Positions 1-63,571 of a stretch of DNA of 64,000 nt are shown here, piece by piece (the stretch's first letter is position 1; each line of letters begins with the position of its first letter). The notes under the pieces were generated by a model that saw nothing but the letters and a program-made list of their open reading frames with translations, did no database searches and was not told the origin of the DNA. Source of the stretch: an uncultured Bacilli bacterium (GTDB lineage Bacteria > Bacillota_I > Bacilli_A > RF39 > UBA660); assembly GCA_947598395.1 (NCBI GenBank), contig CANQFG010000002.1, forward strand, positions 7,813 to 71,812, written 5' to 3'. Position numbers and translations under genes: made by a program.

Positions 1-1124
1 TAATTTTAAATGATGGTGAAGTAGCACCAGAAGATAATAAGCCAATAGATATGAATAAGATAGCCTCGATGTTTGTATGGATACCTAAATATAAATATCG
101 ATTATGGAATGTAAATGTAACTAATCCATTATATACAGTGCATTCTATAGAAATAGAATTTGATAAAAATGATACTGAAGACGTAGAAGGAGTATCATGT
201 GAAACACCAATGGAAAGTGGAGATACAGGTAATTGTGATAATGGAGAGTATATGACACATCCTGCATTTAAATCATTTGGTGTAGATGGTTTTTGGGTTG
301 GTAAATTTGAAACCGGATACAAAGATGCTAGTAATGCTGATGCTGCCAATCAAATTACTGGTACATCAACTGATATAGTTGTTAAACCAGATGAATATTC
401 ATGGCGGGGAGCGAATATTAAAACTTTTTTTACTGCCGCAAAAGGCTATGATGCAAACTTAGATTCACATATGATGAAGAATACAGAATGGGGAGCAGTA
501 GCCTACCTTTCACATTCCATCTTTGGAATAAACAAAGAAATTACAATAAATAATAATAATCAATTTAAAACAGGATATGCTGCATTATCCAGTACTAATC
601 AAAGTAAATATCCTGGCGAAGGTGGAGACGGATCAAATTATAATACTAAATGGAACACGACGAATGGATTTACAGCCAGTACCACGGGAAATACAACCGG
701 TATATATGATATGAGTGGCGGGTCTTGGGAATACATGGCAGCTTATGTTGAGAATACCCTAGGTGGCAGTGGGTTTGCTTCTGAATCAGATGGAATGGAT
801 ACTTTAAAAAAATATTTTGATGTATATAAGAGTGATAGTAATGATACTTCTTATACTAATATGATATTAGGAGATGCTACTGGCGAGATGGGACCATTTA
901 AAAATTTTGCTGATAGTGATAACACTAATAGGTATCATAATAGTTGGTATATGGATAGTTCGTATTTTGTTAGCTCCACACAACCGTGGTTTAATCGCGG
1001 TGGCAGCAGTGCTGATGGCTATCTTGGTGGTCAATTTCATTTTTCTCGTCGTTCGGGTTCAGATAAAAGTAACTCAAGTAATCAAAATCAGAGTTTCCGT
1101 CTCGTACTTGCTCCATCTAATTAA
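1..1124 (+). CDS. 3' part of a long family paralog; FGE-sulfatase/SUMF1-like (C-type-lectin-fold) domain; ORF open to the left window edge
   Basis: Frame 3 is open from nt 3 (ILNDGEVAPEDNKPID precedes the tracked Met at 51). It aligns block for block with the C-terminal ~350 aa of the 19794..21569 product (WIPKYKY, GEYMTHPAF, WVGKFETGYK, HMMKNTEWGAVAYLSHSIFGINKE, YDMSGG.WE, ILGDATGEMGPF, FRL.LAPSN). The motif order mirrors FGE-sulfatase domains (fW.gKyEvT / EWEyAA / yDMsGNvWEW / RGGs / GFR). Confidence 0.75.
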   Translation, partial: ILNDGEVAPEDNKPIDMNKIASMFVWIPKYKYRLWNVNVTNPLYTVHSIEIEFDKNDTEDVEGVSCETPMESGDTGNCDNGEYMTHPAFKSFGVDGFWVGKFETGYKDASNADAANQITGTSTDIVVKPDEYSWRGANIKTFFTAAKGYDANLDSHMMKNTEWGAVAYLSHSIFGINKEITINNNNQFKTGYAALSSTNQSKYPGEGGDGSNYNTKWNTTNGFTASTTGNTTGIYDMSGGSWEYMAAYVENTLGGSGFASESDGMDTLKKYFDVYKSDSNDTSYTNMILGDATGEMGPFKNFADSDNTNRYHNSWYMDSSYFVSSTQPWFNRGGSSADGYLGGQFHFSRRSGSDKSNSSNQNQSFRLVLAPSN

Positions 1125-1145: not shown

Positions 1146-1245
1146 AGCATGTGTCAAAATATGACAAAATTCTTAATTTCTATGTGTTACTTTAGAGACA
1201 TTTAGTAAAAAAAAGTTTACATTGCAAAGAACTAGGGGGGATAAA

Positions 1246-2097
1246 ATGGTTGCAATAGAAACGAAAGATGTCTCTACTAAAATAGAAGAAATAAATCTCT
1301 TAAATGATGCGATATTTAAAGTTATATTTCGAAGTAAAGAGACGAGAGAAGGAGTTGCTAAGTTTTTAAGTCGTGTAACGAAGGTTCCGGAATTGGATAT
1401 ACAAAATGCGCATTTTTTCGGAGGCGAACTTATCAAGACAAATAGTAAAGAAAAAACCAAGATTTCCGATGTCATAATTAGTTTGGAAAATGATATATTG
1501 ATAGTCGTTGAAATGAATCAACATAAACACTATAATCAATTTCTAAAGAATGCCAGTTATGCGATGCGGTTATTTTCGGAATTGACACCGATAAATACGC
1601 AGACATATCCCACGATATACTTAATAAATATCGATAACTTTAGGGGGCTTAAGACAAAGAAGGGAATTTCAGCATTTCAATTTTTAAATGATGAAGGAGA
1701 AAGTGAATTTGATAATTATAAATCGATACATATAGTAATTGAAAATATCTTGAAAGACGATTATAATGGAGATGAGGAGATCAAGAAGATGATAACCTTT
1801 TTGACAACAAAGAATCTGACGGAATTGCGAAAAAAATTTAAAGGGGAGAGGGTATATATGAGAATGGTAGAGAAAGTTGAACAATTGATGGAGGGACCAG
1901 AGATGCTCGGTTACTACGATTTAGAAGAAAAGCAAAAATGGGAACTCGAATCGATGAAAATAACGGGGCTACTTGAAGGAAAAGCTGCCGAAAAAGCTGA
2001 AGTATTAAAGAATATGCTCGATAATGGTTTTAAGAAAAAGACCATATTAAAAATATTAAATATTACTGATCAAGAATATAAACAATTGCAAAATTAA
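1246..2097 (+). CDS. Rpn / PD-(D/E)XK (PDDEXK_2) family putative recombination-promoting nuclease/transposase
   Basis: N-terminal LNDAIFKVIF motif and a nuclease-like block ISDVIISLENDILIVVEMNQ (D..E.Q). The ATG at 1246 follows a GGGGGG Shine-Dalgarno-like run; the tracked TTG at 1222 has no RBS. Confidence 0.6.
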   Translation: MVAIETKDVSTKIEEINLLNDAIFKVIFRSKETREGVAKFLSRVTKVPELDIQNAHFFGGELIKTNSKEKTKISDVIISLENDILIVVEMNQHKHYNQFLKNASYAMRLFSELTPINTQTYPTIYLINIDNFRGLKTKKGISAFQFLNDEGESEFDNYKSIHIVIENILKDDYNGDEEIKKMITFLTTKNLTELRKKFKGERVYMRMVEKVEQLMEGPEMLGYYDLEEKQKWELESMKITGLLEGKAAEKAEVLKNMLDNGFKKKTILKILNITDQEYKQLQN

Positions 2098-5123: not shown

Positions 5124-5334
5124 TATCGTCTTTGAATTAGAAAAAGATAAAAAACTTCACGAATATTTAAAGAACCATTCCTATTGGTATCGCTTTTTAA
5201 ATCGCGATAGTGAAGCATTAAGGGACTTATTAAAAGAATATAAAAATTATAAGCGGGAAAATAATTTAAATAAAGTCAATGATATGGTCGAAAATATCGA
5301 AATGGTAAGTAGCATTATGAAAGTTATGGAATAA
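5113..5334 (+). CDS. ylbE: YlbE-like small protein
   Basis: HSYWYRFLNRDSEAL... resembles the YlbE family. It overlaps the preceding gene by 11 nt (operon). Confidence 0.5.
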   Translation: MEINIVFELEKDKKLHEYLKNHSYWYRFLNRDSEALRDLLKEYKNYKRENNLNKVNDMVENIEMVSSIMKVME

Positions 5335-5357
5335 AGAGTCTGCGGGCTCTTTTTTTC

Positions 5358-5386
5358 TTGAAAAAGCTGCTGAGTTATTTTATAAT
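5358..5386 (+). promoter_or_regulatory. sigma-A type promoter (TTGAAA-17-TATAAT)
   Basis: TTGAAA at 5358-5363, a 17-nt spacer, and TATAAT at 5381-5386, about 30 nt upstream of the 5418 start. Confidence 0.65.
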
Positions 5387-5417: not shown

Positions 5418-7169
5418 ATGGATAATAAAAAGAAGGGTTTTACTTTAATTGAGTTATTAGCTGTTATTATAATCTTAGCTTTGATAATGGTTATAGCTGT
5501 TCCTGCGGTTTTAGAGACGATGCGATCAGCACAAAAAGAATCGTTATATCTCTATGCGCAAAGTTTGCAATCGAAGGCCATCGCGAGATATACGCAAGAT
5601 CTCGATATGAATAAGGAAAATACGGATTGTGCTGTTTACGATATTTCCAAGAATTTGGATCTATCGGGAACCGGCGATTATGAGGGCTGGGTCAAAGTCA
5701 GTCGGACGCCAACTAATTCGGGTAAACGGACGGCGCGCATCGAACTAAGTCATTCCGATACATTGCGCTATGTCAAATACTGCGTAGCTAAAGGTAGCTC
5801 TTGTACGCCCAATACCGCTTTTAATGCGGGCGAGGATAATAAAAAGGCCGTTATCGAAAGAAGTCTTGAAGCGGGCGAAGTCCTTTGTGCCAATTATCAA
5901 TATGCCGATAGCAATAAAGTCTTAAAGACGGCAGACACCCAATGTGTAACATACGATAAGGGGACGACGCTCAACGATACTTATACCTATAATGTCAATG
6001 TAACTTTAAAAGATGATACGTATGCGGTCGAAAATGTCCTCTTTAAAGAGGATATGTCCCGCGATGAATTCTTTGCGGCGATCGAAGACTATAATCAAAA
6101 ACATAAAAATGATGCCAATAAGTTAGCTATTGCCTCGCCTAGTTGTACGGCCGAGGAAAGTGTCAAGGGAACGACAACGCGAGGAACGACGGAAGTTACC
6201 AATAATGAGGCGACGACGCGAGGAACGACGGAGGCGTCAAGTAAGACGACATCGACGCGTTCGACGAATGTCATCGATCCAAGCAGCAACACGACAAGGG
6301 GCACGAGTGAGGTCATCACCAGTTCCTCGACGACGCGGGCGACGACGACCGAGACGACCACGACGATCAATGTCGAAGATCGGAGCTTATTACTCACGAG
6401 TTTGAATATTGCTGGCTATAACATTAACTTCGACCCTCTCAAATTTTACTATACCCTCGATGTACCATATAATGTCACGAATTTAAATATCAGTGCTACG
6501 GCCGAGCGACCTGATGTAAGCGTCGTTCAAGTAGCCGGAAATGATTACTTAGGTGTCGGCGATAATCCCGTAATCGTCACTGTCTTTAATCAAACGACGG
6601 GCGCCAAAGCCAATTATCGCATCAACGTCACGCGCTTCAATGAAACTGGAGTACGGCCAACGAGTCCAACTAATCCAATCGTCGATCCAAACAATAACGA
6701 AGAAGGTAAACCGGATCCAACAATTGAAGAGAGTAATGCGGCTCTTGCCTATTTGGCGATATCTGGATATGACCTCGACTTCGATCCTGATGTCTACGAA
6801 TACACATTGACGACCAAGGGCGAAAGTAAATTATATGTCAATTATCGTGCAGCCAGTGAAAATGCCGTCGTAGCTCTTTATGGCAATGAAGAAGTCAAAG
6901 ATGGCGGCGAAATAACCCTCTTCGTTCAAAGTGAAAATGGCTACTATAATAAGACCTATAAGATTAAGATTCAATTTGAACAAGTTGCCTCGACGGGAAC
7001 AAAAGTCCTAAGGGGAGTTGCCGTTGGCTTGGGCGTCTTGCTCATAATTCTTTTGATAATAATCAGTTTAAATAAGAAAAAGCGCAGTAATAATAATTCG
7101 GATACGGTTGAAGACAAAGAAAATAATTCGGAACCAGATAATAACTCGACGAATGCGAATAGTGTGTAA
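5418..7169 (+). CDS. prepilin-type N-terminal domain protein fused to a Thr-rich linker, two cadherin-like beta-sandwich domains and a C-terminal TM anchor
   Basis: MDNKKKG|FTLIELLAVIIILALIMV is a class III (type IV pilin) signal with Glu at +5. Two domains begin LLTSLNIAGYNINFDP..YYTL and LAYLAISGYDLDFDP..YEYTL (cadherin-like beta-sandwich pattern). The C-terminus GVAVGLGVLLIILLIIISLNKKKR is a TM segment plus a basic stop-transfer. Confidence 0.8.
   Translation: MDNKKKGFTLIELLAVIIILALIMVIAVPAVLETMRSAQKESLYLYAQSLQSKAIARYTQDLDMNKENTDCAVYDISKNLDLSGTGDYEGWVKVSRTPTNSGKRTARIELSHSDTLRYVKYCVAKGSSCTPNTAFNAGEDNKKAVIERSLEAGEVLCANYQYADSNKVLKTADTQCVTYDKGTTLNDTYTYNVNVTLKDDTYAVENVLFKEDMSRDEFFAAIEDYNQKHKNDANKLAIASPSCTAEESVKGTTTRGTTEVTNNEATTRGTTEASSKTTSTRSTNVIDPSSNTTRGTSEVITSSSTTRATTTETTTTINVEDRSLLLTSLNIAGYNINFDPLKFYYTLDVPYNVTNLNISATAERPDVSVVQVAGNDYLGVGDNPVIVTVFNQTTGAKANYRINVTRFNETGVRPTSPTNPIVDPNNNEEGKPDPTIEESNAALAYLAISGYDLDFDPDVYEYTLTTKGESKLYVNYRAASENAVVALYGNEEVKDGGEITLFVQSENGYYNKTYKIKIQFEQVASTGTKVLRGVAVGLGVLLIILLIIISLNKKKRSNNNSDTVEDKENNSEPDNNSTNANSV
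6165..6370 (+). repeat. Thr/Arg/Ser-rich low-complexity coding repeat (TTRGTTE units)
   Basis: ACG/ACGACG-rich stretch encoding GTTTRGTTE..ATTRGTTE..NTTRGTSE..TTRATTTETTTT. It also creates the spurious overlapping ORFs 6095..6397(-) and 6130..6405(+). Confidence 0.8.
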
Positions 7170-7206: not shown

Positions 7207-7235
7207 TTGACTAAAGAAAAGATAAAATATATAAT
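7207..7235 (+). promoter_or_regulatory. sigma-A type promoter (TTGACT-17-TATAAT)
   Basis: TTGACT at 7207-7212, a 17-nt spacer, and TATAAT at 7230-7235. Confidence 0.65.
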
Positions 7236-7259: not shown

Positions 7260-7793
7260 ATGATGAAGAAGAAAAATGGTTTTACATTAGTAGAATTACT
7301 AGCGGTTATCGTCATATTAGCAATTATAATGGTCATTGCCATTCCTGCCGTATTAGATGTTATGAACCGTTCAAGAAAAAGTGCATTTGTGCTCTATGCG
7401 CAAAAGGTTATTCGTGATACAAAAACTCAATATTCCTATGATGCTGGTTTAGGAGCAGCAACGGGAGCGGGATACTTTGTATACAGTATTGTCGATGATT
7501 TAGATTATGATTCGACTGGTGATTATCAAGGGTATGTCGTCGTCAATGCTACTAACGTTGATAAACCAGAATATATATTATTCTTATATGATAATAATTA
7601 TATGATTTTAAATTATAATGTAACTGATTTTGGAATGCCGACGACAAGTGATAGTGCCATTCAAGCTTATTCGGCAAGTGCTGTTGGAACGCAAGCTAAT
7701 AATGCTAAAGATGCTTGTACAGCAGCGGGAGCTGTCGGTGGTGTCGAATGTTATAATCGCGATGGTTTCGTAATTGTTAAAAAGGATGAATAA
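7260..7793 (+). CDS. prepilin-type N-terminal cleavage/methylation domain protein (small pilin/pseudopilin-like)
   Basis: MMKKKNG|FTLVELLAVIVILAIIMVIAIPAV. It shares post-helix blocks with the 5418 product (YAQK/YAQS, STGDYQGYVVV vs GTGDYEGWVKV). The ATG at 7260 follows AAGAGGA. Confidence 0.8.
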   Translation: MMKKKNGFTLVELLAVIVILAIIMVIAIPAVLDVMNRSRKSAFVLYAQKVIRDTKTQYSYDAGLGAATGAGYFVYSIVDDLDYDSTGDYQGYVVVNATNVDKPEYILFLYDNNYMILNYNVTDFGMPTTSDSAIQAYSASAVGTQANNAKDACTAAGAVGGVECYNRDGFVIVKKDE

Positions 7794-13853: not shown

Positions 13854-14486
13854 ATGACAAAGAAAACGACAAAAACAAATAGCAAAATACCCCAAAACCG
13901 AAAAATACGCGGGGGGGGGTCACATAGCTCATCTCGTGAAAAACAAAGAACAGGGATAGCTATTGCAATATTATTAATGGCCATTGGTTTCGCAGCCGTA
14001 ACGACGACATTGACGATCAATGGAACCATTAAATATGGATATGATAAGGACAAATTTATCGTAAAGTTTACTGCTGCAACATTAGATGAAACGGAAGCTG
14101 GTGAGGGTGTTGAAAATCCTAAGATCGATGAAAGTGGTCAATCGATAACTTATACGACTAAGGATTTAAAGACGATTGGTGAATCTAGTGTTTTGGATTT
14201 TACGGTTACCAACCAATCGACTCAATATGATGCCAGTGTAACAATTGAATGTAAAGAAAGTGACGCTGAATTACCTAAAACAAAGCTTGTTGATAGTTAT
14301 GTAACCCTTACTGAAAAGTTTGGTGAAGATGATGCTGAAACTCCGGTTACAATAACGGCCAATGGTGGAACCGCTAAAGGCAAAATTACAGTTACTTTAA
14401 TAAAAGCAACTACGGAAGCTAGGGATACGACATTTAAATGTACTCTAACTGCTACTCCAGTTGAAATAACTAGTCGAGCTAATTAA
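13854..14486 (+). CDS. family paralog 1 (small): basic tail + signal-anchor + two-Cys N-module
   Basis: SREKQR-TGIAIAILLMAIGFAAVTTTLTINGTIKYGYDKDKFIVKFT, ...YTTKDLKTIG.SSVL.FTVTN.STQYDASVTIEC..., ...FKCTLTATPVE. RBS GAGGT. Contains an in-frame G9. Confidence 0.8.
   Translation: MTKKTTKTNSKIPQNRKIRGGGSHSSSREKQRTGIAIAILLMAIGFAAVTTTLTINGTIKYGYDKDKFIVKFTAATLDETEAGEGVENPKIDESGQSITYTTKDLKTIGESSVLDFTVTNQSTQYDASVTIECKESDAELPKTKLVDSYVTLTEKFGEDDAETPVTITANGGTAKGKITVTLIKATTEARDTTFKCTLTATPVEITSRAN
13911..13919 (+). repeat. G9 homopolymer inside the CDS (codons 20-22, GGG GGG GGG)
   Basis: Read directly: cgc ggggggggg tca. G8 or G10 would produce stops within 3-16 codons, before the hydrophobic segment. 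Confidence 0.95.
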
Positions 14487-14554
14487 TATACTAATGATTA
14501 AATTATCATATCCATAAAAATGTATATCATTAATATTATGGAAGAGGTTAAATT

Positions 14555-15226
14555 ATGACAAAGAAAACTACAAAAAAATCGACAACTAAAAAAGCTCCAA
14601 TAACCCAAAAAGTAACAGGAGCAAGTAGACATAGTACATCACGTGAAAAACAAAGAATGGGGATTCTCATCGCCATTCTATTAATGGCAATCGGATTTGC
14701 CACGGTTACAACAACTTTAACAATTAATGGAACTATTAAATATGGATATGATAAAAATGACTTTATCGTAAAATTTACGCAAGCAGCAGTTGATGAAGTT
14801 GAATCAACAGCAAGTGAAGGAAATAAACCAACAATTGGTGATGATGGTAAGACAATCACATATACGACAAAAGATTTGAAATCATTAAATGATAAGAGTG
14901 TTTTGACATTTACTGTTTCAAATGGAAGTAGTCAATATGATGCTAGTGTTACTATATCTTGCGAAGCGGTAACTAATGCTGAAACCGAAGAAACCGAAAC
15001 AACGACGGCAGCAACTTCTAAAAACGTTAAGGATTATGTAACTGTTGAAGCAAAAATAAATGGTCAAACGGCTTCTGAAGCTGTTCAAATTGACGCAAAA
15101 GGTAATAAACAAGGAACAGTAACTGTTACTTTAAATAAAGTTTCCATCGACGAAATGACTGGTAAGGTAACTTGTAAACTAAATGCAACGCCAGTTGAAA
15201 GAAATAGCGCAGCTACTGGTGAATAA
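14555..15226 (+). CDS. family paralog 2 (small)
   Basis: Same architecture and motifs as 13854..14486 (SREKQRMGILIAILLMAIGFATVTTTLTINGTIKYGYDKNDFIVKFT; QYDASVTISC; VTCKLNATPVE). Confidence 0.8.
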   Translation: MTKKTTKKSTTKKAPITQKVTGASRHSTSREKQRMGILIAILLMAIGFATVTTTLTINGTIKYGYDKNDFIVKFTQAAVDEVESTASEGNKPTIGDDGKTITYTTKDLKSLNDKSVLTFTVSNGSSQYDASVTISCEAVTNAETEETETTTAATSKNVKDYVTVEAKINGQTASEAVQIDAKGNKQGTVTVTLNKVSIDEMTGKVTCKLNATPVERNSAATGE

Positions 15227-15253
15227 TCGTAAAAAGCAGATGGAGGAAATATT

Positions 15254-15889
15254 ATGGCACAAACGAATTCTAAAAAGAAAACGACAGCTAAAAATACTAA
15301 AACAAGAAAAATAACAAATAATAATCATAATACTTCTCGTGAAAAGCAAAGAACTGCTATTGCCATTGCCATTTTACTTATGGCCGTTGGCTTTGCAGCC
15401 GTTACGACAACATTAACAATAAATGGAACAATTAATTATGGATATGATAAAGATAAATTCATCGTTAAATTTACTGAAGCATCATTAGATGGCGTAAACT
15501 CGAACGACGTAGAAGAAGGTAAACCTACAATTGATTCTGAAGGACATACGATTACTTATACATCAAAAGAATTAAAGACGATAAATGAAGAAAGTGTGTT
15601 AACTTTTAAGGTTCAAAATCAATCAACCCAATATGATGCTACTGTTAATATTAAATGTGAAGAAGTTGATGATCGTGGTGAGAATTCTACTACAAAATTA
15701 GTTAATAAATACATTACTCTTAATGGAAAACTCGGTGAAAATGAGCAACCTACTAGGATTGATGCTGGTAGTACTGCTGATGGTACAGTAACCGTTAAAT
15801 TGATTAAAGCTACTGTTGATGAACAAAGTACAAATATCAAGTGTACTTTAGAGGCTACGCCATTAGAAAGAACATCATCAACTCAATAG
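15254..15889 (+). CDS. family paralog 3 (small)
   Basis: Same architecture (SREKQRTAIAIAILLMAVGFAAVTTTLTINGTINYGYDKDKFIVKFT; QYDATVNIKC; IKCTLEATPLE). RBS GGAGG. Confidence 0.8.
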   Translation: MAQTNSKKKTTAKNTKTRKITNNNHNTSREKQRTAIAIAILLMAVGFAAVTTTLTINGTINYGYDKDKFIVKFTEASLDGVNSNDVEEGKPTIDSEGHTITYTSKELKTINEESVLTFKVQNQSTQYDATVNIKCEEVDDRGENSTTKLVNKYITLNGKLGENEQPTRIDAGSTADGTVTVKLIKATVDEQSTNIKCTLEATPLERTSSTQ

Positions 15890-15892
15890 TAT

Positions 15893-15912
15893 AGAGCATA
15901 TGCTCTTTTTTT
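15893..15912 (+). terminator. rho-independent terminator after the paralog triplet
   Basis: AGAGCA/TGCTCT palindrome followed by a T run. Confidence 0.6.
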
Positions 15913-15931
15913 ATAAAATAAAACCATTAGT

Positions 15932-16117
15932 TTACGAATTACTAATGGTTCTAATTAAATAATATACTAGTGGAGCTAGGAAAGATGCTAGCATTGCTAT
16001 AAACATAAACCAGATAAATACTTTAGTTATAAAGGGAGTATCACTGGTTTTTTTCTTTTTTGATTTATGTTTCTTTTGGGCAATTTTTATATTTCCAACT
16101 TCATTTTTATCATCCAT
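15932..16117 (-). CDS. small membrane protein, unknown function
   Basis: The ATG at 16117 lies 8 nt after GGTGA. Lys-rich N-terminus followed by one TM (VFIWFMFIAMLASFLAPLVYYLI). Confidence 0.5.
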   Translation of the reverse strand: MDDKNEVGNIKIAQKKHKSKKKKTSDTPFITKVFIWFMFIAMLASFLAPLVYYLIRTISNS

Positions 16118-16197
16118 AATATTTATCACCTATCTAAAATTATATCTTAAATGTCATATAAAATAAAGATAAAAATATATTTAAATAGGTGAGAATT

Positions 16198-16743
16198 GTG
16201 AAAAATAATCGTCATATTATTATCTTTGTAAGTATTTTAGTAATAGCCTCTATAATAACGGGATATATCTATGGAATTAATAATTATTATGATCTAACGG
16301 AATATATTAAACAATTGACGACTCATAATAATCAATTTTTACCACATATTGCTATTTTATGTGCCTTTTTATTTTCGACAATATCATTAGCAGGTATTAT
16401 CTTTGAAGTTATATATATTGGTTTTGAAAGTATAAGTATTGGTTATTTATTGGCAATATTTTATAGTAATTTTAAATTTAAGGGGATAATATTTAGTTTA
16501 GCAGTTATTGGAATTAATAAACTTTTCTTTTTAATTATCTTATTTTATTTATTCTATGTAAGTTGTCATTATATACGTAAGAGTATTAGAAATATATTAG
16601 GTATGAATAAAGATTATATTGAAGTAGTTACTAAACCATTATTACTTAAATATGCTATTATGTTTGGTTTTTTAATTATCTATGATCTATTTGTCTATCT
16701 TTTTGGCAATAATATTTTAAATTATTTGACTTTTATGCTATAA
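16198..16743 (+). CDS. polytopic membrane protein (possibly SpoIIM/DUF95-like, tentative)
   Basis: 4-5 predicted TM segments. The GTG at 16198 follows AGGTGA. Start uncertain (the tracked start 16189 lies inside the RBS). Confidence 0.45.
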   Translation: MKNNRHIIIFVSILVIASIITGYIYGINNYYDLTEYIKQLTTHNNQFLPHIAILCAFLFSTISLAGIIFEVIYIGFESISIGYLLAIFYSNFKFKGIIFSLAVIGINKLFFLIILFYLFYVSCHYIRKSIRNILGMNKDYIEVVTKPLLLKYAIMFGFLIIYDLFVYLFGNNILNYLTFML

Positions 16744-16765
16744 TGCCTTTTGGAAGTGGTTCTTT

Positions 16766-17875
16766 ATGGCTAAAAAGGTCGTTGTTGGGATGTCAGGGGG
16801 CGTTGATTCATCAGTTGCCGCTTATCTTTTAATTAAAGAGGGTTATGAAGTAATAGGTTTATTTATGCGGAACTGGGACAGCATGTTAAATAATGATATT
16901 GAAGGTAATCCCAATTTAGGAAATAATATTTGTCCTCAAGAACAAGATTATAATGATGCTTTGGCGGTCTGTGAAAAATTGGGTATTCCTCTATATCGTG
17001 TTGATTTTATTAAAGAATATTGGGATAATGTCTTTACTTATTTTTTAGATGAATTAAAAAAGGGAAGAACGCCTAATCCCGATTTGATGTGTAATAAATA
17101 TATTAAATTTGATTCTTTTATTAAGGAAGCAAGAAAACTGGGTGCTGATTATATAGCTACGGGTCATTATGCCCGAATTAAAGGTTGTAAATTATATCGA
17201 GGGATAGATAGTAATAAGGATCAATCGTACTTTTTGGCGCAATTGGCACCTGATCAATTAAAGGATGTCTTATTTCCTGTAGGAGATTTAAAAAAGGAAG
17301 AGGTACGGGAAATTGCTGAGTCTTTGGATTTGATAACGGCTAAGAAAAAGGATTCGACGGGTATATGTTTTATTGGAGAGCGTAATTATCAAAAGTTTAT
17401 TCAAAATTATTTAAAACCTAATCCTGGTGATATTATCAATGTCGATACGTTAGAAGTAATTGGCAAACATAGTGGACTTATGAATTATACGATTGGGCAA
17501 CGAAGAAATGTAGGCGTAAGTGGTTTTCAATATAAGCATTTTGTCGTTGGTAAGAATGTCAAAGATAATATTTTATATGTTGCTTTTGGCGATGATCCTG
17601 AGACATTGTATTCCGATGAGTGTATTATCGATAATGTCAATTTTATATCACCTAATCATCCGGCTTTTTGTACGGCAAAGTTCCGTTATCGAGGACCTGA
17701 TAATGAAGTAATGCTCGAATATCTTGACAATAATGAAATACGCGTCCGTTATCCTCAAAAAGTTAAAGCAGTTACTCCTGGGCAAGCATGTGTTTTATAT
17801 TTAGGAGAGCAATGTTTAGGCAGTGGCATTATCAAAGAAGTTCGCAAAAATAATGAAAAATTATGGTATCTATAA
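16766..17875 (+). CDS. mnmA: tRNA 2-thiouridine(34) synthase
   Basis: VVVGMSGGVDSSVAAYLL PP-loop, DQSYFL, and a full-length MnmA pattern. Confidence 0.95.
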   Translation: MAKKVVVGMSGGVDSSVAAYLLIKEGYEVIGLFMRNWDSMLNNDIEGNPNLGNNICPQEQDYNDALAVCEKLGIPLYRVDFIKEYWDNVFTYFLDELKKGRTPNPDLMCNKYIKFDSFIKEARKLGADYIATGHYARIKGCKLYRGIDSNKDQSYFLAQLAPDQLKDVLFPVGDLKKEEVREIAESLDLITAKKKDSTGICFIGERNYQKFIQNYLKPNPGDIINVDTLEVIGKHSGLMNYTIGQRRNVGVSGFQYKHFVVGKNVKDNILYVAFGDDPETLYSDECIIDNVNFISPNHPAFCTAKFRYRGPDNEVMLEYLDNNEIRVRYPQKVKAVTPGQACVLYLGEQCLGSGIIKEVRKNNEKLWYL

Positions 17876-17876
17876 A

Positions 17877-17898
17877 CGTCGATTATTCGACGCTTTTT
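17877..17898 (+). terminator. rho-independent terminator of mnmA
   Basis: CGTCG (17877-81) pairs with CGACG (17888-92), followed by CTTTTT. Confidence 0.6.
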
Positions 17899-17970
17899 AT
17901 GTTGAAAAAAATGCAACTGGGGGGGGGTGCAATACAATAGAGAAAATGGAAAATAGGAGCAGAGATTGAC
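17899..17970 (+). promoter_or_regulatory. conserved leader/promoter element, copy A (contains G9 and a TACAAT box)
   Basis: 72 nt nearly identical to 19723..19793. TTGAAA at 17902-07, G9 at 17919-27, TACAAT at 17933-38, AGGAG at 17955-59. Confidence 0.6.
17919..17927 (+). repeat. G9 homopolymer 43 nt upstream of the start codon
   Basis: Read directly: actg ggggggggg tgcaaTACAAT. Confidence 0.95.
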
Positions 17971-19359
17971 ATGAAAAAGAGATGGATACTAGTAACTATA
18001 TTATTTCTTAGTATTGGATTTGCATCCGTAACAGCAGTCTTAACGATAACCGGAAAAGTAAATATAAACTTTGATGACGAAGATTATCAAGTATACTTTT
18101 CCGATGCTTATTTAGATGATGTAAGACATATGGAATTTATTGATGATACGAGAAAGAAAATAACATTCACAACTAATGCCTTAACCTCAGTAGGCGATAC
18201 AAGTATTTTAAAATATGAAGTAACGAATAATAGTAAACAATATGATGCGGAAGTAAGTGTCGAATGTACGCCAAGTGAAACTGACTATTATAGTGTAAGT
18301 AATAGTTTAACAGAAAGAATAAATGCGCAAAGTCGAGAAAGTGGAACGATAACTATTGAGTTAAAGAAAGTTGTGTTAGAGGAAACAGAAGAAACATTTA
18401 CTTGTAATCTAACAATAAATGCTACGTCGAGAGAAGATGTAGAAGAATCATTGCTATGTGAAAATGAAATAAATCATATTTGGAATTTTGATTATACAGG
18501 AGGAGAACAAGAATTTATCCCTGACTGTGCAGGAAATTATAAATTAGAAGTATGGGGAGCACAAGGAGGAATTGATACTACTTCGTCTTTTACTTTTCAA
18601 GGTTATGGTGGCTATGCCATAGGAAATGTAAAATTAGAAGCCAATCAACGAATATATATCAATGTTGGAGGACAAGGAGAAGGTTACACTGGAGTAGGAG
18701 AAAAAATAAATCGTGACTATAAAGGCGGTTATAATGGAGGTGGAAATGGTGGATCTAAAAGTTCTCAATATGGCTTTGGCGGAGGTGGAGCAACGCATAT
18801 CGCTTTAGAAATGGGATTGCTCAGTGAATTTGAAAGTAAAAAAGAAAATCTTTTAATCGTTGCTGGAGGTGGCGGTGGAAATTCTTCTTATGAAAATAAA
18901 GTGTTTGGGGGCTCTGGAGGTGGAATCCAAGGCGGTAATGGGAATAATATTGTTGTTAATTCTGCTGACCGCTACTATGGAACAGGTGGAACTCAAGAAC
19001 AAGGTGGAGATGATAGTACTAGTGGTTTTCAAAATGATCGTGCTTTAGGAACATTCGGTCAAGGAGGAATCTATTATCGCGATCCATATAAAGAGTTTAA
19101 CTATGTTAGTGGTGCTGGAGGCGGAGGCGGTTACTATGGCGGAGGCGGAAGTTCTCGTGGGCATGCCAGTGCCGGTGGTGGATCTGGTTATATTGGAAAT
19201 GATTTATTAAGTGAAAAAGCTATGTACTGCTATAATTGTGAACCCAATGGAGAAGTAAAAACGAAAACGATTACTACCGAAAGTTTTAGTCAAGAAGCTC
19301 AAAGTATGTTTGCCAAACAAGGCAATGGGTATGCTAGAATAACTTATTTAGGAAAATAA
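17971..19359 (+). CDS. family paralog 4 (long): signal-anchor + two-Cys N-module + ALK/LTK-type glycine-rich domain
   Basis: MKKRWILVTILFLSIGFASVTAVLTITGKVNINF; QYDAEVSVEC; FTCNLTINA. The C-terminal part reads YKLEVWGAQGG..GYGGYAIGNV..IYINVGGQG..GGGGATHIAL..LLIVAGGGGG..GGSGGGIQGG..SGAGGGGGYYGGGG..AGGGSGYIG (bacterial glycine-rich domain pattern). Confidence 0.8.
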   Translation: MKKRWILVTILFLSIGFASVTAVLTITGKVNINFDDEDYQVYFSDAYLDDVRHMEFIDDTRKKITFTTNALTSVGDTSILKYEVTNNSKQYDAEVSVECTPSETDYYSVSNSLTERINAQSRESGTITIELKKVVLEETEETFTCNLTINATSREDVEESLLCENEINHIWNFDYTGGEQEFIPDCAGNYKLEVWGAQGGIDTTSSFTFQGYGGYAIGNVKLEANQRIYINVGGQGEGYTGVGEKINRDYKGGYNGGGNGGSKSSQYGFGGGGATHIALEMGLLSEFESKKENLLIVAGGGGGNSSYENKVFGGSGGGIQGGNGNNIVVNSADRYYGTGGTQEQGGDDSTSGFQNDRALGTFGQGGIYYRDPYKEFNYVSGAGGGGGYYGGGGSSRGHASAGGGSGYIGNDLLSEKAMYCYNCEPNGEVKTKTITTESFSQEAQSMFAKQGNGYARITYLGK

Positions 19360-19400
19360 AAAAACTTGCTAAGCAAGAGTAAATTTAATATAATGAATGT

Positions 19401-19464
19401 AGGAGGACTTAAGTCAGTTAAGTCGCCTATATTGTATAAGCTACCTTAAAAGGTAGTTTTTTTT
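19401..19464 (+). ncRNA. possible small RNA convergent with the mini-ORF (speculative)
   Basis: TTGCTA-17-TATAAT (19366..19394) lies immediately after the 17971 CDS stop. No start codon follows the AGGAGG at 19401. It ends at the hairpin CTACCT/AGGTAG plus T8 (19441..19464), which overlaps the stop codon of the minus-strand mini-ORF. Confidence 0.25.
19441..19464 (+). terminator. rho-independent terminator
   Basis: CTACCT (19441-46) pairs with AGGTAG (19451-56), followed by T8. Confidence 0.7.
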
Positions 19465-19537
19465 ATATTAGGCCTACAACGTAGAGCACTAAAATAAAAA
19501 TAATGATCAATAAGAAAGAAATAATAAAATCCTTCAT
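19463..19537 (-). CDS. 24-aa hydrophobic peptide MKDFIISFLLIIIFILVLYVVGLI (type I toxin-like)
   Basis: Not in the ORF track (under 60 aa). The ATG at 19537 lies 5 nt after GGAGGTGA (19543-19550, minus strand). A single TM-length hydrophobic core. A TATAAT box on the minus strand at 19637-19642 would give a ~90-nt structured leader. Confidence 0.4.
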   Translation of the reverse strand: MKDFIISFLLIIIFILVLYVVGLI

Positions 19538-19700
19538 TACTATCACCTCCACTACTTTCTATAGATTAAACTGGTCAACCAGCAACCCCCTGAAAATAAT
19601 GGCAACTACAAACTCAGTGGTCCTCCTGAGGGTAATATTATAGATGGTAAAAAATAAAAGGAAATAGACCTGACAAAAAAAGACAAAAGATTTCAAAAAT

Positions 19701-19721
19701 GCCGTATTTTCGGCTTTTTTT
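19701..19721 (+). terminator. rho-independent terminator preceding leader copy B
   Basis: GCCG/CGGC hairpin followed by T7. Confidence 0.45.
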
Positions 19722-19722
19722 C

Positions 19723-19793
19723 ATGTTGAAAAAAATGCGACTGGGGGGGGTGCAATACAATAGAGAAAATGGAAAATAGGAGCAGAGATCGAC
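19723..19793 (+). promoter_or_regulatory. conserved leader/promoter element, copy B (contains G8 and a TACAAT box)
   Basis: Differs from copy A by 2 substitutions and the G-run length. TACAAT at 19756-61. Confidence 0.6.
19743..19750 (+). repeat. G8 homopolymer 43 nt upstream of the start codon
   Basis: Read directly: actg gggggggg tgcaaTACAAT. Confidence 0.95.
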
Positions 19794-21569
19794 ATGAAAA
19801 AAAGATGGGTATTATTAACTGTATTATTTTTAACTATTGGATTTGCATCAGTAGCAACAATACTAACAATAACGGGAAGAGTAAATATAAATTTTAATGA
19901 AGAAGATTATCAAATATACTTTAGTAAAGCTGTAGTAGATAGTATAGATAAGAGTTATGAAGTAATAGATCCAGATACGAGAAGGTCAATAAAATATTCA
20001 ACAAAAGATTTAAGTAAAGTAAGTGATACAAGTGTCTTGGAATATGAAGTAACAAATAATAGTACCCAATATGATGCAACAGTAGAGGTAGTATGTGAAG
20101 CAAAGACTGAAGATAAGGAAAAAGCTACTGAATATGTAACGATAACAAATGAAATGAAAAATAATACTATCAAAGCTCAGACGAGAGAAACTGGAACTGT
20201 AAGTGTTCAATTAAAGAAAGTAACAGTGGACCCAATTGATATAGAATTTACTTGTACATTAACAGTAAATCCTGTAGGAAATGATGTATTAAAAGAACCA
20301 GAATTAGCTGAGAATAGTTGTCGAGATATCGGAATACCAAGTTTGGGAGAAGGAGACAAATTAATACCGATAGTATTAGATGATGAAGGAAAAGCAACGC
20401 GAGTAGAGAAAACGGATACTAATTGGTATGACTATTGCAAGAGAGAATGGGCGAATGCGGTCATATTAAATGAAGATGCAGATTTACCAGATGTTGGTGA
20501 AGAAATACCAGAAGCATCAATCGAAAGTTATTTTGTGTGGATACCAAAATACAAATATAAATTATGGAATGTTGAAACAGATAATACAGAAGTTGGAAAA
20601 CATAGTATAGAAATAATATTTGATACGCAAGATACAACAAATGTTCCAGGAGAATCATGTGAAACACCAAAGACTAGTGGAAATATTGGAGATTGTAAAG
20701 ATGGCGAATATATGACGCACCCAGCATTTATCTCATTTGGCGTAGATGGCCTCTGGGTTGGTAAATTTGAAACGGGTTATAAAGGAGCAAACGATAAAAC
20801 AAGTGCTGAACAAGATAATAATGAATCAAGTCATATAATAATAAAACCAAATGCTTATTCATGGCGAAAGATTACTGTCAAAAATATTTTTGAAGCATCA
20901 AAAAAATATAAAGAAAATTTACAATCACATATGATGAAGAACACGGAATGGGGAGCAGTAGCCTATCTATCGCATTCGATATTTGGTATAAATAAAGAGG
21001 TAACGATAAATAACAATAATAAATATAAGACTGGATATGCGGCTTTACCTACTACAGATCAAAGTAAAAATCCTGGTGAAGAAGGTGATGATGGAAATTC
21101 TAATACAGCATGGAATACTCAAAATGGAGTTACAGCTAGTACGACGGGAAATATTACTGGTGTTTATGATATGTCTGGTGGAGCATGGGAGATTATGGCG
21201 GCTTATGTAGCAGAAGTTCCAAATGATCAAAGTGGATTTCAAGCTGAAGAATTGAAAAAAATAGATGCAAGATATGTTGATGTATATGAAAAAACAAGTA
21301 CAGGAATATCGTATGGAAAAATGATCTTAGGTGATGCCACGGGAGAAATGGGGCCTTTCGATAATTATGAAGATGGAGATAAAATAACAAGAGGGCACAA
21401 TCGTTGGTATGCCGACGTTTCTGTTTTCATTTACGCTTTGTCCCCTTGGTTCGGACGAGGCAGCTATAGCGGCGGCGGAGTTGTAGCTGGACAGTTCTAC
21501 TTCGATAGGTCCGCTGGTGCAGCCCGTGGAGGCGATGGCTTTCGCCTCGCTTTAGCTCCATCTAATTAA
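19794..21569 (+). CDS. family paralog 5 (long): signal-anchor + two-Cys N-module + linker + FGE-sulfatase-like domain
   Basis: MKKRWVLLTVLFLTIGFASVATILTITGRVNINF; QYDATVEVVC; FTCTLTVNP. The C-terminal ~350 aa is homologous to the partial ORF 1..1124. Confidence 0.8.
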   Translation: MKKRWVLLTVLFLTIGFASVATILTITGRVNINFNEEDYQIYFSKAVVDSIDKSYEVIDPDTRRSIKYSTKDLSKVSDTSVLEYEVTNNSTQYDATVEVVCEAKTEDKEKATEYVTITNEMKNNTIKAQTRETGTVSVQLKKVTVDPIDIEFTCTLTVNPVGNDVLKEPELAENSCRDIGIPSLGEGDKLIPIVLDDEGKATRVEKTDTNWYDYCKREWANAVILNEDADLPDVGEEIPEASIESYFVWIPKYKYKLWNVETDNTEVGKHSIEIIFDTQDTTNVPGESCETPKTSGNIGDCKDGEYMTHPAFISFGVDGLWVGKFETGYKGANDKTSAEQDNNESSHIIIKPNAYSWRKITVKNIFEASKKYKENLQSHMMKNTEWGAVAYLSHSIFGINKEVTINNNNKYKTGYAALPTTDQSKNPGEEGDDGNSNTAWNTQNGVTASTTGNITGVYDMSGGAWEIMAAYVAEVPNDQSGFQAEELKKIDARYVDVYEKTSTGISYGKMILGDATGEMGPFDNYEDGDKITRGHNRWYADVSVFIYALSPWFGRGSYSGGGVVAGQFYFDRSAGAARGGDGFRLALAPSN

Positions 21570-30236: not shown

Positions 30237-31835
30237 ATGAAGCGAGGATTTAAATCCTTATTAATGATTTTAGGTGTCTTTTGGATTTTATCCGCACCAC
30301 AAAATGTCTGGGCTGCCGAATATAAATTAGGCAAAGCCGAAAAGTCAGAAAATATAACGAAAATACCAGTAACGATACATATTGGCGATAACGAAAGTAT
30401 TACGCAAGCCAAGCTTACGTGTGATGCCAAAAATTCCGATGTCGATTGCCGCATCGAGATTATCGAAGGGTTAGGATTTACGGCCAATGAGAGTGCCAAT
30501 GGCATCGTATTGAGCTATATCAATAGTTCTGATCCGAGCGATAACAATTTTCCAAAGGGCGATACGGTAGTTGCCAATGTCATCTTGACCAATAATTCGA
30601 CGTCAGCGTTGAGCAATGTGCGCGTCGATTTAGAGGGCTCGACGATTGGCGATGTAGCTCAAAGTGATTATACTGATGCCTCATTGGGAGCTAAGCCCGT
30701 TGAAAAACCTAAATCTGGGGATGCCACTTTAAAGAGTCTCAAGGTCTCGCAAGGAAAGATGAGTCCCGAATTTAAAAATGATGTCTATGATTATACGATT
30801 TATGATATTGCCGATACCATCAATAGCGTCAAGATAACCTATGAATGTAATGCGCCAGCCGATGAAGGCGAGTGTTCCGATTCGGGATTCCATGGTGGAA
30901 AGAGTACCAATGGTTCGACCGTTACTTTAAATCAAGGGGAAAATAAAGTCTATTTTGAAATTACGAGTCCCGATGGCAATAACCATGTCACCTATAATTT
31001 AACGATCTATCGTGGGGAATCGACTTTTAACTCCGATAAGTTGAGTTCCCTAAGTGTTGGCGACTATACTTTGACGCCTGCCTTCAGTGCCGATGTCGTC
31101 TCCTATAACTTGACTGTTCCAAATACGATATCGAGCATTAAAGATCTTATTGCTTATACCCTCCAAGATGAAAAGGCCAAAGTCGATGTTCAAGGGGCCG
31201 AAAATTTAATCGTCGGTTTGAATCGCGTCACCTTAAAGGTCGATAATGTCAATGGCGATTCTTCGAAGACATATGTCATCAATGTCACGCGGTTATCCGA
31301 AGAAAATATTGAAATTGTCAGTTATAAAAACAATATCGTCACCTATAAAGATGAAAATGGCATCGAATCCAAGATCGAAATGACCGAATTCGAAAAACAA
31401 TATCCAACCGAAGCGGCCAAGATTAAAAATGGAATTTATAAATTCGATGAAGAGGGAAATCTCATCGTCGAAAATACCAATCCAACGGTTACGGAAGAAC
31501 CCGAGGCCGACGAAGAGAAAAAAGATAATAAAGTATGGTTAATCGTCGTCTTAGTTATCGTCGGTTTAGCTATTATTATCGTTTCGGGTATCCTCATCTT
31601 CCGCAAGAAGGATAAAAAGGAAGAGTTGAGTGATGCCAAAGAGGAAAATATCGAAAAACATGAAGACAAGGCACCAGCTGAAGAAGAAGATGAAAACTAT
31701 AGTGAAGATGGCATCGAAGAAGCCGTCATCGGTGGGGAATTTTCCGATGATCTCGATACGACGGTCGATGTCGATATTGCCCTTAATGATTTGATGAATA
31801 CCAAACAATATGAATTTGATGATGATCAAGAATAG
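30237..31835 (+). CDS. surface protein: signal peptide + N-domain + two cadherin-like beta-sandwich domains + C-terminal TM anchor + acidic tail
   Basis: Signal peptide LLMILGVFWILSAPQNVWA|AE. LKSLKVSQGKMSPEFKNDVYDYTIY and LSSLSVGDYTLTPAFSADVVSYNLTV are cadherin-like starts. TM segment WLIVVLVIVGLAIIIVSGILIF followed by RKKDKK. Confidence 0.75.
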   Translation: MKRGFKSLLMILGVFWILSAPQNVWAAEYKLGKAEKSENITKIPVTIHIGDNESITQAKLTCDAKNSDVDCRIEIIEGLGFTANESANGIVLSYINSSDPSDNNFPKGDTVVANVILTNNSTSALSNVRVDLEGSTIGDVAQSDYTDASLGAKPVEKPKSGDATLKSLKVSQGKMSPEFKNDVYDYTIYDIADTINSVKITYECNAPADEGECSDSGFHGGKSTNGSTVTLNQGENKVYFEITSPDGNNHVTYNLTIYRGESTFNSDKLSSLSVGDYTLTPAFSADVVSYNLTVPNTISSIKDLIAYTLQDEKAKVDVQGAENLIVGLNRVTLKVDNVNGDSSKTYVINVTRLSEENIEIVSYKNNIVTYKDENGIESKIEMTEFEKQYPTEAAKIKNGIYKFDEEGNLIVENTNPTVTEEPEADEEKKDNKVWLIVVLVIVGLAIIIVSGILIFRKKDKKEELSDAKEENIEKHEDKAPAEEEDENYSEDGIEEAVIGGEFSDDLDTTVDVDIALNDLMNTKQYEFDDDQE

Positions 31836-48448: not shown

Positions 48449-48534
48449 AATTTTACCTCCCTTAGTATTATGGTCTATTATTGAATAATTATGATATCTA
48501 TGTTATGATATTTCTAACAATAGGAAGTGGAAGT

Positions 48535-62859: not shown

Positions 62860-63468
62860 TTACCTTCGCCAATTTTTTTTAATATTAGGATCATCCAAGA
62901 TCTCCTGAGCTCGTATCATCATCTTCATATAGGGTTCATCGCCGGCATAGATGGTTCTCATCTTCTCGATATCGCGCGTCGTTAAGAAGGTAATCATCTT
63001 TTTAATGGCTGGATCTTCATCGAACTCATCTTTTAAGACATTTTCAATTTCGACATGAATAGCTTCATAGGAGTCATCTTCCAATATTCCCTCTTCGTTG
63101 CGCGATTGCATATGCATGACATAATCATCGATATAGTAGTATTTGACCTTATCGATATAGATTTCAAAGAGTTTTGGAACTTCGTCGACATGCCCCAATT
63201 TAAAATAGAGGATTTGTATGACATTGTGATCCAATAGGGAAATATAGGCGGCCGGACCATCCTTCTTATTTTCAAAGTCCTCGATGAGTCCCGTCTTTAT
63301 ATCCGCTTTCCGCAGTAAAGATTCCTCGATATGCGTCAGGCGATTTATAAAGCGCGCGAGAGCATCCCGAGCTAGTGGACTTTTAAAGAGTTCCTTAAAA
63401 GCCACATTTTCTAATAAATCGATTTGTCCCCTTTTGGGTTTCATGATAACTAAATCTGTTGCAAACAT
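62860..63468 (-). CDS. degenerate Rpn/PDDEXK_2-family paralog
   Basis: C-terminal half aligns with the 1246..2097 product (HV/IVIENVLKDE/D, IKKMITFLTT). The nuclease block is replaced (YISLLDHNVIQILYFKLG versus ISDVIISLENDILIVVEMNQ). The ATG at 63468 follows AAGGGAGGAG. Confidence 0.5.
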   Translation of the reverse strand: MFATDLVIMKPKRGQIDLLENVAFKELFKSPLARDALARFINRLTHIEESLLRKADIKTGLIEDFENKKDGPAAYISLLDHNVIQILYFKLGHVDEVPKLFEIYIDKVKYYYIDDYVMHMQSRNEEGILEDDSYEAIHVEIENVLKDEFDEDPAIKKMITFLTTRDIEKMRTIYAGDEPYMKMMIRAQEILDDPNIKKNWRR

Positions 63469-63571
63469 AAATATTCTCCTCCCTTGTGCAACGTACTGCA
63501 TATTTTTCTTCACTCGCGCCTTACCTTAGCACTTCATAAGCGCGAATTTTGTCACATTTGGGGGAATGCTT

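Follow-up and report, generated by a model that had tools for sequence, protein, structure and literature searches.

A conserved type IV pilin ending in a second predicted membrane anchor: a candidate tethered pilus subunit in uncultured gut Bacilli

The 64,000-nt stretch of contig CANQFG010000002.1 studied here (the window, to which all positions refer unless another contig is named) encodes at 5418..7169 on the plus strand a protein of 583 amino acids (aa), termed the big pilin and numbered from Met1. It starts as a type IV pilin and ends in a transmembrane (TM) helix, and this two-anchor layout, singled out in the first-pass annotation as a topological puzzle, is real and conserved. We propose, with a probability of roughly 45%, that the big pilin is an assembly-competent pilin that stays tethered to the membrane and would act as a pilus anchor or length limiter. 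From its architecture and conservation we infer processing by the prepilin peptidase PilD, incorporation into a filament, and the role as anchor or limiter.

Architecture and conservation of the big pilin

The open reading frame (ORF) is comprised of 583 codons and a stop, has no internal stops and is preceded by a good ribosome-binding site (RBS). The encoded parts follow in the order prepilin signal, head of ~240 aa, disordered Thr-rich linker, two cadherin-like domains, TM helix, NKKKR and variable tail. The full AlphaFold2 (AF2) model, built on 38 relatives, has a mean predicted local distance difference test score (pLDDT) of 72. Its structured blocks reach ~72-92, with the lowest values among them in both helices and at domain edges. 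The model shows a helix at 10-64, a beta head at 71-228, disorder at 246-316, beta-sandwiches at 322-410 and 437-522 with a short disordered stretch between them, a helix at 526-557, and a disordered tail. Features of the gene and its product are listed below.

5333..5352 (+), terminator-like hairpin 3' of ylbE and upstream of the big pilin gene, closing ylbE
5358..5386 (+), sigma-70-like promoter TTGAAA-17-TATAAT of the big pilin gene (11/12 matches; consensus match only)
5418..7169 (+), complete ORF of the putative tethered modular pilin, 583 aa and stop (ORF list, Pfam, NCBIfam, library relatives)
5418..5438 (+), leader peptide MDNKKKG (aa 1-7), with predicted prepilin peptidase cut after Gly7 (PF07963, TIGR02532)
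5439..5609 (+), alpha-1 helix of the pilin module (aa 8-64) with F+1, E+5 and P+22, its N-terminal half being membrane segment 1 (AF2 helix 10-64; Kyte-Doolittle 3.28)
5610..5795 (+), remaining pilin module (aa 65-126), alpha-beta loop and four strands, invariant C71 and C122 (AF2, alignment)
5796..6152 (+), extra beta-rich module with one helix (aa 127-245), invariant C129, C157, C176 and C243 (AF2, alignment)
6153..6371 (+), Thr/Ser-rich disordered linker (aa 246-318; pLDDT below 50)
6372..6647 (+), cadherin-like beta-sandwich domain 1 (aa 319-410; PF12733 at aa 326-406, AF2, Foldseek cadherin EC)
6648..6725 (+), interdomain linker of constant length, 26-27 aa (alignment of relatives)
6726..6983 (+), cadherin-like beta-sandwich domain 2 (aa 437-522; second PF12733 stretch, AF2)
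7011..7073 (+), C-terminal TM helix (aa 532-552, RGVAVGLGVLLIILLIIISLN; Kyte-Doolittle 3.04, AF2 helix 526-557, in all 38 aligned relatives)
7074..7166 (+), polybasic stop-transfer KKKR and low-complexity tail, predicted cytoplasmic (aa 553-583; sequence, alignment)

The N-terminus had been described as a canonical prepilin-peptidase substrate with Glu at +5, and profile searches bear this out. Pfam N_methyl (PF07963) covers aa 3-27 with E 7.8e-8 and 32 bits, above the cut-off of 21.2, and the NCBIfam model TIGR02532 (IV_pilin_GFxxxE) is matched at 27.5, above its cut-off of 16.3. Residues G7 (G-1), F8 (F+1) and E12 (E+5) are invariant in 38 relatives, and P29 (P+22) is nearly so.

The first-pass annotation also proposed a pilin-like head of ~110 aa resembling the neighbouring small pilin. 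The resemblance stands, as the first 97 aa share 47% identity with the adjoining protein (E 7e-24), while the length had to be revised: the conserved head spans ~240 aa and combines a pilin module of ~125 aa with an extra beta module, and six invariant cysteines are shared across both. The 55-residue alpha-1 (helix 10-64) is the same in the full and the head-only AF2 models, and in the latter (mean pLDDT 85) it is followed by four strands at 71-125. The module at aa 127-245 was left without a family in the Pfam scan. Comparison of the head-only model with PDB by Foldseek did not disclose any significant match (best E 3.8e-3, TM-score 0.12), to a solved pilin or otherwise. The family profile aligns with solved pilins through alpha-1 only, the best being S. 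sanguinis PilE1 (E 1.3e-6). Scores against named pilin equivalogs in NCBIfam fall far below cut-offs (ComGC 29.1 vs 75, ComGE 27.7 vs 49, GspG 26.6 vs 88.9), and these and other equivalog matches span only the first 30-70 residues, i.e. alpha-1. By sequence, the big pilin classifies as a type IV pilin, and in the reading we prefer it would be a genuine type IV pilin paralogue.

The Thr-rich stalk and the pair of cadherin-like domains, both named at first inspection, were recovered as well: PF12733 is matched in two stretches (E 7.8e-9, 36.3 bits against a cut-off of 24.2) and in 38/38 relatives, and AF2 predicts disorder followed by two beta-sandwiches. With the full model as a query, Foldseek returned tandem cadherin/protocadherin EC domains, in a match list dominated by tandem Ig/cadherin folds. 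The length of the Thr-rich linker in relatives is 73-129 aa or more, and in 15 of the 38 it incorporates Flg_new domains. The interdomain linker carries the motif G-x-P-D-P (aa 430-434); P432 and D433 never vary among the relatives, and G430 and P434 hardly do.

Kyte-Doolittle hydropathy in a 19-aa window reveals exactly two membrane-grade segments, at aa 10-28 (3.28) and aa 533-551 (3.04). The first is preceded by KKK and the second is trailed by NKKKR, so both termini are predicted to be cytoplasmic, with ~500 residues outside. In all 38 aligned relatives the second hydrophobic segment is followed by a K/R cluster, and both hydrophobic ends are always kept, in agreement with the C-terminal TM helix, KKKR and tail of the first description. 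The tail measures 3-43 aa in an 18-sequence alignment and 7-100 aa in all 38 relatives. Ahead of the TM helix the consensus reads S-x-(S/T)-T-K-x-L-R and lacks a conserved P or G. Furthermore, we did not find an LPXTG-type sorting signal ahead of this helix in the family (38 relatives), and no NCBIfam CTERM model (GlyGly-CTERM/rhombosortase, PEP-CTERM type) was matched; tails extend up to 100 aa.

To describe the family, a word-indexed search covering 5.8 billion proteins was combined with a HMMER scan, exhaustive over 1.84 billion cluster representatives, that used a head-only profile. The first disclosed about 38 full-length relatives with PF07963 and PF12733, 36-58% identical to the big pilin. 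The second gave 36 proteins at E<=1e-30, ~31 of them spanning the whole head. In every full-head relative retrieved that is not cut by a contig end or mid-domain, the cadherin-like domain(s) lead into a TM helix and then a polybasic cluster at the C-terminus, and no such relative has the head without the C-terminal anchor. Other modular pilins in the same match list carry different C-terminal modules and no C-terminal TM helix.

The architecture was also sought in other genomes, as suggested at the outset. Among the 21 other species (genomes) of the genus, 19 have the gene, stop-free; across the order (151 genomes, 87 genera) it occurs in just one further genus. Scanning a genome-contig collection with the single big pilin protein gave no match. 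The same scan with the alignment, whose patterns were limited to pilin-signal peptides, returned generic pilins of many phyla and was uninformative on taxonomy and context.

The layout is odd a priori, and this is the only point in favour of an assembly or annotation artefact, in which a pilin ORF and a type-I surface protein ORF were misjoined, or of a decaying pseudogene. Fusion of two ORFs had been named in the first-pass annotation as a refuting case, and it is excluded by the orthologues within the genus and by the layout shared among ~37 library relatives. The frame is single and stop-free here and in 19 other genus genomes, the same architecture comes from independent ENA, Logan, NCBI and JGI assemblies, and the sequence is under purifying selection except in the linker and tail. 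We consider the probability of such an artefact negligible.

Regional conservation was expressed as mean pairwise identity per region in the 18-sequence alignment, as follows.

Alpha-1N (aa 8-35), 0.71, the best conserved region
Alpha-1C (aa 36-64), 0.61
Pilin sheet, 0.51
Cadherin-like domains, ~0.45
Interdomain linker, 0.41
TM helix, 0.40
Extra beta module, 0.38
Thr-rich linker, 0.29
Tail, 0.16

The C-terminal half of the big pilin shares 34% identity over aa 303-559 with one Sec-dependent type-I surface protein of another genus. Sec-signal proteins of the same bacterial family that join cadherin-like domains to a TM helix with a polybasic tail occur in the window and in other genera. As an illustration, the window encodes at 30237-31835 (+) a type-I surface protein of 532 aa with a Sec signal, a variable head, two PF12733 domains (E 2e-19), a TM helix, RKKDKK and a long acidic tail. 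Its stalk-and-anchor cassette is the same as that of the big pilin, and similar proteins of 491 aa (L102) and 605 aa (L110) exist in other genera. The family looks like a putative product of fusion between a duplicated pilin gene and the stalk-and-anchor cassette of a type-I surface protein, subsequently fixed in one genus and a neighbouring one.

Partner pilin and pilus machinery

Genes in the locus are arranged everywhere in the order parC-like, ylbD, ylbE, big pilin, small pilin, nfo, rnfC-like and rnfD-like. Two features belong to the partner small pilin.

7207..7235 (+), sigma-70-like promoter TTGACT-17-TATAAT of the small pilin gene
7260..7793 (+), partner small pilin, 177 aa from the Met after the RBS AAGAGGA, always adjoining the big pilin

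The mature small pilin has 170 aa, with F+1, E+5, P+22 and a C-terminal Cys pair. A maximum-likelihood tree built from the N-terminal 95 mature residues of 13 big/small pairs separates big from small pilins into two clades (100/100 support), and the branching within one clade parallels that within the other. Identity between big and small pilins is 0.45 within genomes and 0.44 between genomes. The clean clades, together with within-genome identity no higher than that between genomes, point to one old duplication followed by vertical inheritance. Concerted evolution or gene conversion of the two N-termini, which would have suggested co-assembly, is ruled out on the same grounds.

The source genome is 1.30 Mb long, in 84 contigs and 95% complete; related uncultured gut 'Bacilli' have genomes of 0.6-2 Mb, and those in this genus 0.9-2.0 Mb. 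Locating pilD, pilB and pilC elsewhere in the genome had been proposed as a check, and genes of the type IV pilus (T4P) machinery turned out to be present yet scattered over contigs C61 and C4.

C61:2889-3668, prepilin peptidase PilD (A24_N and A24)
C61:3677-5251, platform protein PilC (two T2SSF domains)
C4:13245-15365, PilB/GspE-type ATPase (T2SSE, 402 bits)

The best-scoring assignments are PilB/GspE for the ATPase and GspF/PilC for the platform protein, rather than ComGA/ComGB. Each of the 22 genomes of the genus encodes one PilB-type ATPase, and no PilT was found in any of them. PilM did not appear above the cut-off in the source genome (sub-threshold 14.7 bits). The PilB-type ATPase is unusually long, with 706 aa here and open frames of ~680-1090 aa in other complete copies of the genus, and its extensions, both N- and C-terminal, are of low complexity.

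A CpaF/VirB11-like ATPase is encoded once in 21/22 genus genomes, and the remaining one, 84% complete, has PilB only. In the source genome, two RcpC/CpaB-like proteins are followed by a CpaF/VirB11-like ATPase at a contig end (C26:13179-15932, L003), in a set conserved in the genus. It is possibly a second filament system, Tad-type or related to conjugation.

Seven ORFs in the genome match PF07963, including one member of a three-ORF pilin-like cluster, and about eight pilin-like proteins are encoded besides the big pilin. Three consecutive pilin-like ORFs of 328, 182 and 254 aa, with no Pfam family, are located at C28:4662-6960 (-) (L014). In the 328-aa protein, Ser replaces Glu at +5. Absence of Glu at this position is a hallmark of the first (tip) subunit, and the three ORFs are candidates for a minor-pilin complex that primes this T4P system or forms its tip. 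Because this separate set includes a subunit without E5, the tip role is probably already filled. Another large modular pilin, of 682 aa, is encoded at C21:912-2960 (+) (L012); it has Tyr at +22, many Cys residues and no C-terminal TM helix. Downstream of it are a membrane-anchored protein of 671 aa and a transglutaminase-like protein.

Tethered subunit, surface loop or released adhesin

In the mechanism we propose, the class III signal would insert the N-terminus in the N-in orientation, ~500 residues would be exported, and the C-terminal helix with NKKKR would stop the transfer, leaving both ends facing the cytoplasm. PilD would then remove MDNKKKG, and the pilin module, small-pilin-like and with F+1, E+5 and P+22 kept, would be taken up into a filament by the PilB/PilC machine, the C-terminal helix remaining in the membrane throughout. 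The tether would be comprised of 73 disordered residues, two domains of ~4 nm and the 26-residue linker, with a computed contour of ~40-45 nm, and up to ~100 nm in relatives with longer linkers. Gram-positive walls are roughly this thick. Once in the filament, a subunit could move outwards no further than its tether allows, so the filament would be tied to the membrane by a continuous polypeptide and/or its elongation would stall. A monoderm bacterium without secretin and PilT would in this way have a built-in anchor or length limiter for its pilus. Placement in the body or base of the filament, rather than at the tip, is suggested by the existence of the E5-less minor pilin set elsewhere and by the module being closest to an ordinary pilin. 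More tentatively, the protein may represent a new functional class, a tethered pilin polymerised via its N-terminal module, with a C-terminal helix that never leaves the membrane, and serving as a leash of ~40-100 nm that fastens the pilus and/or stops its growth.

We favour the reading as an assembly-competent, membrane-tethered pilin on account of the invariant E+5, of alpha-1 as the best conserved part of the protein, and of the absence of a conserved cleavage motif. By an established rule of pilin biology, pilins need the +5 Glu and the helix-kinking Pro for docking into the growing filament (PMC10191384). In a plain anchor, a buried Glu and a kinking Pro would be costly, and their conservation favours an assembly-competent subunit.

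Alternatively, the big pilin would never be polymerised, its class III signal being a PilD-processed N-terminal anchor of a doubly anchored surface loop protein. This could be an adhesin, for example, or a partner at the pilus base that touches other pilins or PilC laterally, comparable to the archaeal bindosome. Two membrane-grade segments with positive-inside flanks at both ends would give a stable hairpin-like topology by default, ordinary type-I surface proteins of the lineage use the same stalk-and-anchor cassette, and it is mechanically awkward to pull out a subunit that is held fast at its opposite end. A simple anchor, however, would tolerate far more change than is observed in E+5, which is invariant, in P+22, nearly invariant, and in alpha-1. 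In addition, the pilin module has co-diverged with the adjoining ordinary pilin since one old duplication, and the gene is confined to genomes with a T4P machine, the PilB-type ATPase being present in all 22 genomes of the genus. On balance, we consider a non-polymerising protein unlikely.

Release by proteolysis would turn the big pilin into a pilin-primed adhesin. In this scenario, the C-terminal helix would be removed after export by a rhomboid or another protease, leaving an ordinary modular pilin, with its two cadherin-like domains presented from the pilus by a Thr-rich stalk. There is good precedent for modular pilins that bear adhesive modules, as in PilB and PilC of S. sanguinis (PMC8179133). 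One rhomboid protease is encoded in the genome (125 bits), and the outer third of the TM helix is rich in small residues (G-x-x-x-G-x-G) in the big pilin and in about half of its relatives. A small-residue-rich outer TM segment is typical of rhomboid substrates. Against this, no family-wide cleavage motif and no LPXTG or CTERM signature could be detected, and the rhomboid protease is near-universal (14/14 control genomes), so its presence says little. Moreover, a discarded anchor should be lost in some lineages, and it is kept in every complete relative. The Gly-rich outer segment is missing in the whole Flg_new-bearing subgroup, and as general support for cleavage the motif was dropped, since only about half of the members have it. 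The genome also encodes four sortases above cut-off, which rules out the idea of a lineage without sortase. We regard proteolytic release as somewhat less probable still than the non-polymerising form.

Several points weigh against the proposed membrane-tethered, assembly-competent pilin. Conservation of alpha-1N and E+5 would also be expected if only recognition or methylation by PilD, or intramembrane binding of other pilins, were needed. With no significant solved-pilin match in Foldseek, the pilin fold beyond alpha-1 rests on the AF2 model and on similarity to the small pilin. The tether varies in length about three-fold among relatives, which speaks against a precise ruler. Failure to find PilM leaves the machinery defined only in part, and the fragmented and incomplete state of the genome counts on the same side. 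Finally, the rhomboid protease and the four sortases leave room for removal of the anchor after export.

The three alternatives of the first-pass annotation can be ranked by this evidence, with none of them settled. A tethered pilus or pseudopilus component is favoured, release by proteolysis has no conserved motif to support it, and re-use of the pilin signal for membrane insertion alone agrees least well with the conservation pattern.

Relation to known systems and biological meaning

Known modular pilins include PilB (vWA module) and PilC (lectin module) of S. sanguinis, and an InterPro survey counted 264 architectures in >1,200 such proteins (Raynaud et al. 2021; PMC8179133). The defining combination of IPR012902/PF07963 with a non-T4P domain is found in the big pilin family, where PF12733 is present in all 38 relatives and Flg_new additionally in 15. 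Like known modular pilins, the big pilin has an N-terminal pilin module with a class III signal, a linker and non-pilus domains, comes from a monoderm host and is encoded beside ordinary pilins. Known modular pilins end with the extra module and are free to leave the membrane, whereas a TM helix, polybasic cluster and tail are obligatory here. The free C-terminus that is implicit in modular pilins, and that lets the module be shown along the filament or at its tip, is absent, with the TM helix and polybasic cluster found in every complete relative. The additional domains also look like a stalk and not like a terminal binding head. The survey itself has zero mentions of a transmembrane segment (PMC8179133), and full-text literature searches for pilins with a C-terminal membrane anchor found no description. 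In papers on archaeal T4P, 'C-terminal transmembrane' refers to S-layer-like proteins in the loci, not to pilins. What is new relative to known modular pilins is the obligatory C-terminal anchor.

Type-I surface proteins with the same cassette share with the big pilin the domain order of the C-terminal half and the kind of anchor. They differ in having a cleavable Sec signal and a non-pilin head, in place of a pilin module with hydrophobic alpha-1N. In sortase-assembled pili, the basal pilin, such as SpaB of Corynebacterium diphtheriae, is a minor subunit that ends polymerisation and fastens the fibre to the cell. The similarity with the big pilin would be in the proposed role alone: the proteins are unrelated, as is the chemistry, in which a sortase joins the fibre to the cell wall by transpeptidation, and the big pilin has no LPXTG. 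Sugar-binding proteins of the Sulfolobus bindosome (PMC3387779) similarly place a prepilin-type signal on a large, non-pilin-looking exported surface protein, but they are archaeal, depend on PibD/Bas, and have neither a second anchor nor a conserved pilin head. Pseudopilins of the type II secretion system and Com pilins (GspG-K, ComGC-GG) also belong to single-ATPase systems and are linked to the big pilin by weak N-terminal matches to ComGC, ComGE and GspG. A tethered subunit would limit the filament to a pseudopilus-like length. The matches, however, are below curated cut-offs and confined to alpha-1, and the ATPase and platform protein are not ComGA/ComGB.

Several other genes were noted in the window. 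A multigene family at 13854-21569 and 3-1124 (+) has a common signal-anchor (…IGFAAVTTTLTINGT…) and an N-module with two Cys residues, and its payloads are FGE-sulfatase-like or glycine-rich. In other organisms an FGE-like payload is fused to pilin signals (e.g. P0045 and P0110, ending in …GFR(V/L)VL(S/A)P). The 535-aa protein at 48481-50088 (+) has a TM segment at either terminus and, between them, a transglutaminase-like core followed by a Thr/Asn-rich stalk; a paralogue is encoded at C21:5028-6293. Near the opposite ends of the window, at 1222-2097 (+) and 62860-63513 (-), two paralogous ORFs share a C-terminal block (…EIKKMITFLTT…); we take them to be Rpn/YhgA-like.

The family is small, with ~two genera, so its biological reach is narrow unless the principle recurs elsewhere. 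For monoderms, neither the way in which type IV filaments are fixed in the envelope nor the control of filament length is settled. To our knowledge, all current assembly models assume the N-terminal helix to be the only membrane contact of a pilin, and a conserved pilin unable to leave the membrane would break this one-contact assumption. The big pilin would be informative whichever way it works, as a cap or anchor of the filament, as a non-polymerising protein with a pilin signal at the machine, or as a case of C-terminal processing new for pilins. If the proposal is true, a tethered pilin does in one protein what basal pilins and sortase do for sortase pili. In broader terms, uncultured gut Bacilli with reduced genomes invest heavily in modular surface fibres, with the same stalk and adhesin cassettes shuffled between pilins, TasA-like subunits and type-I membrane proteins.

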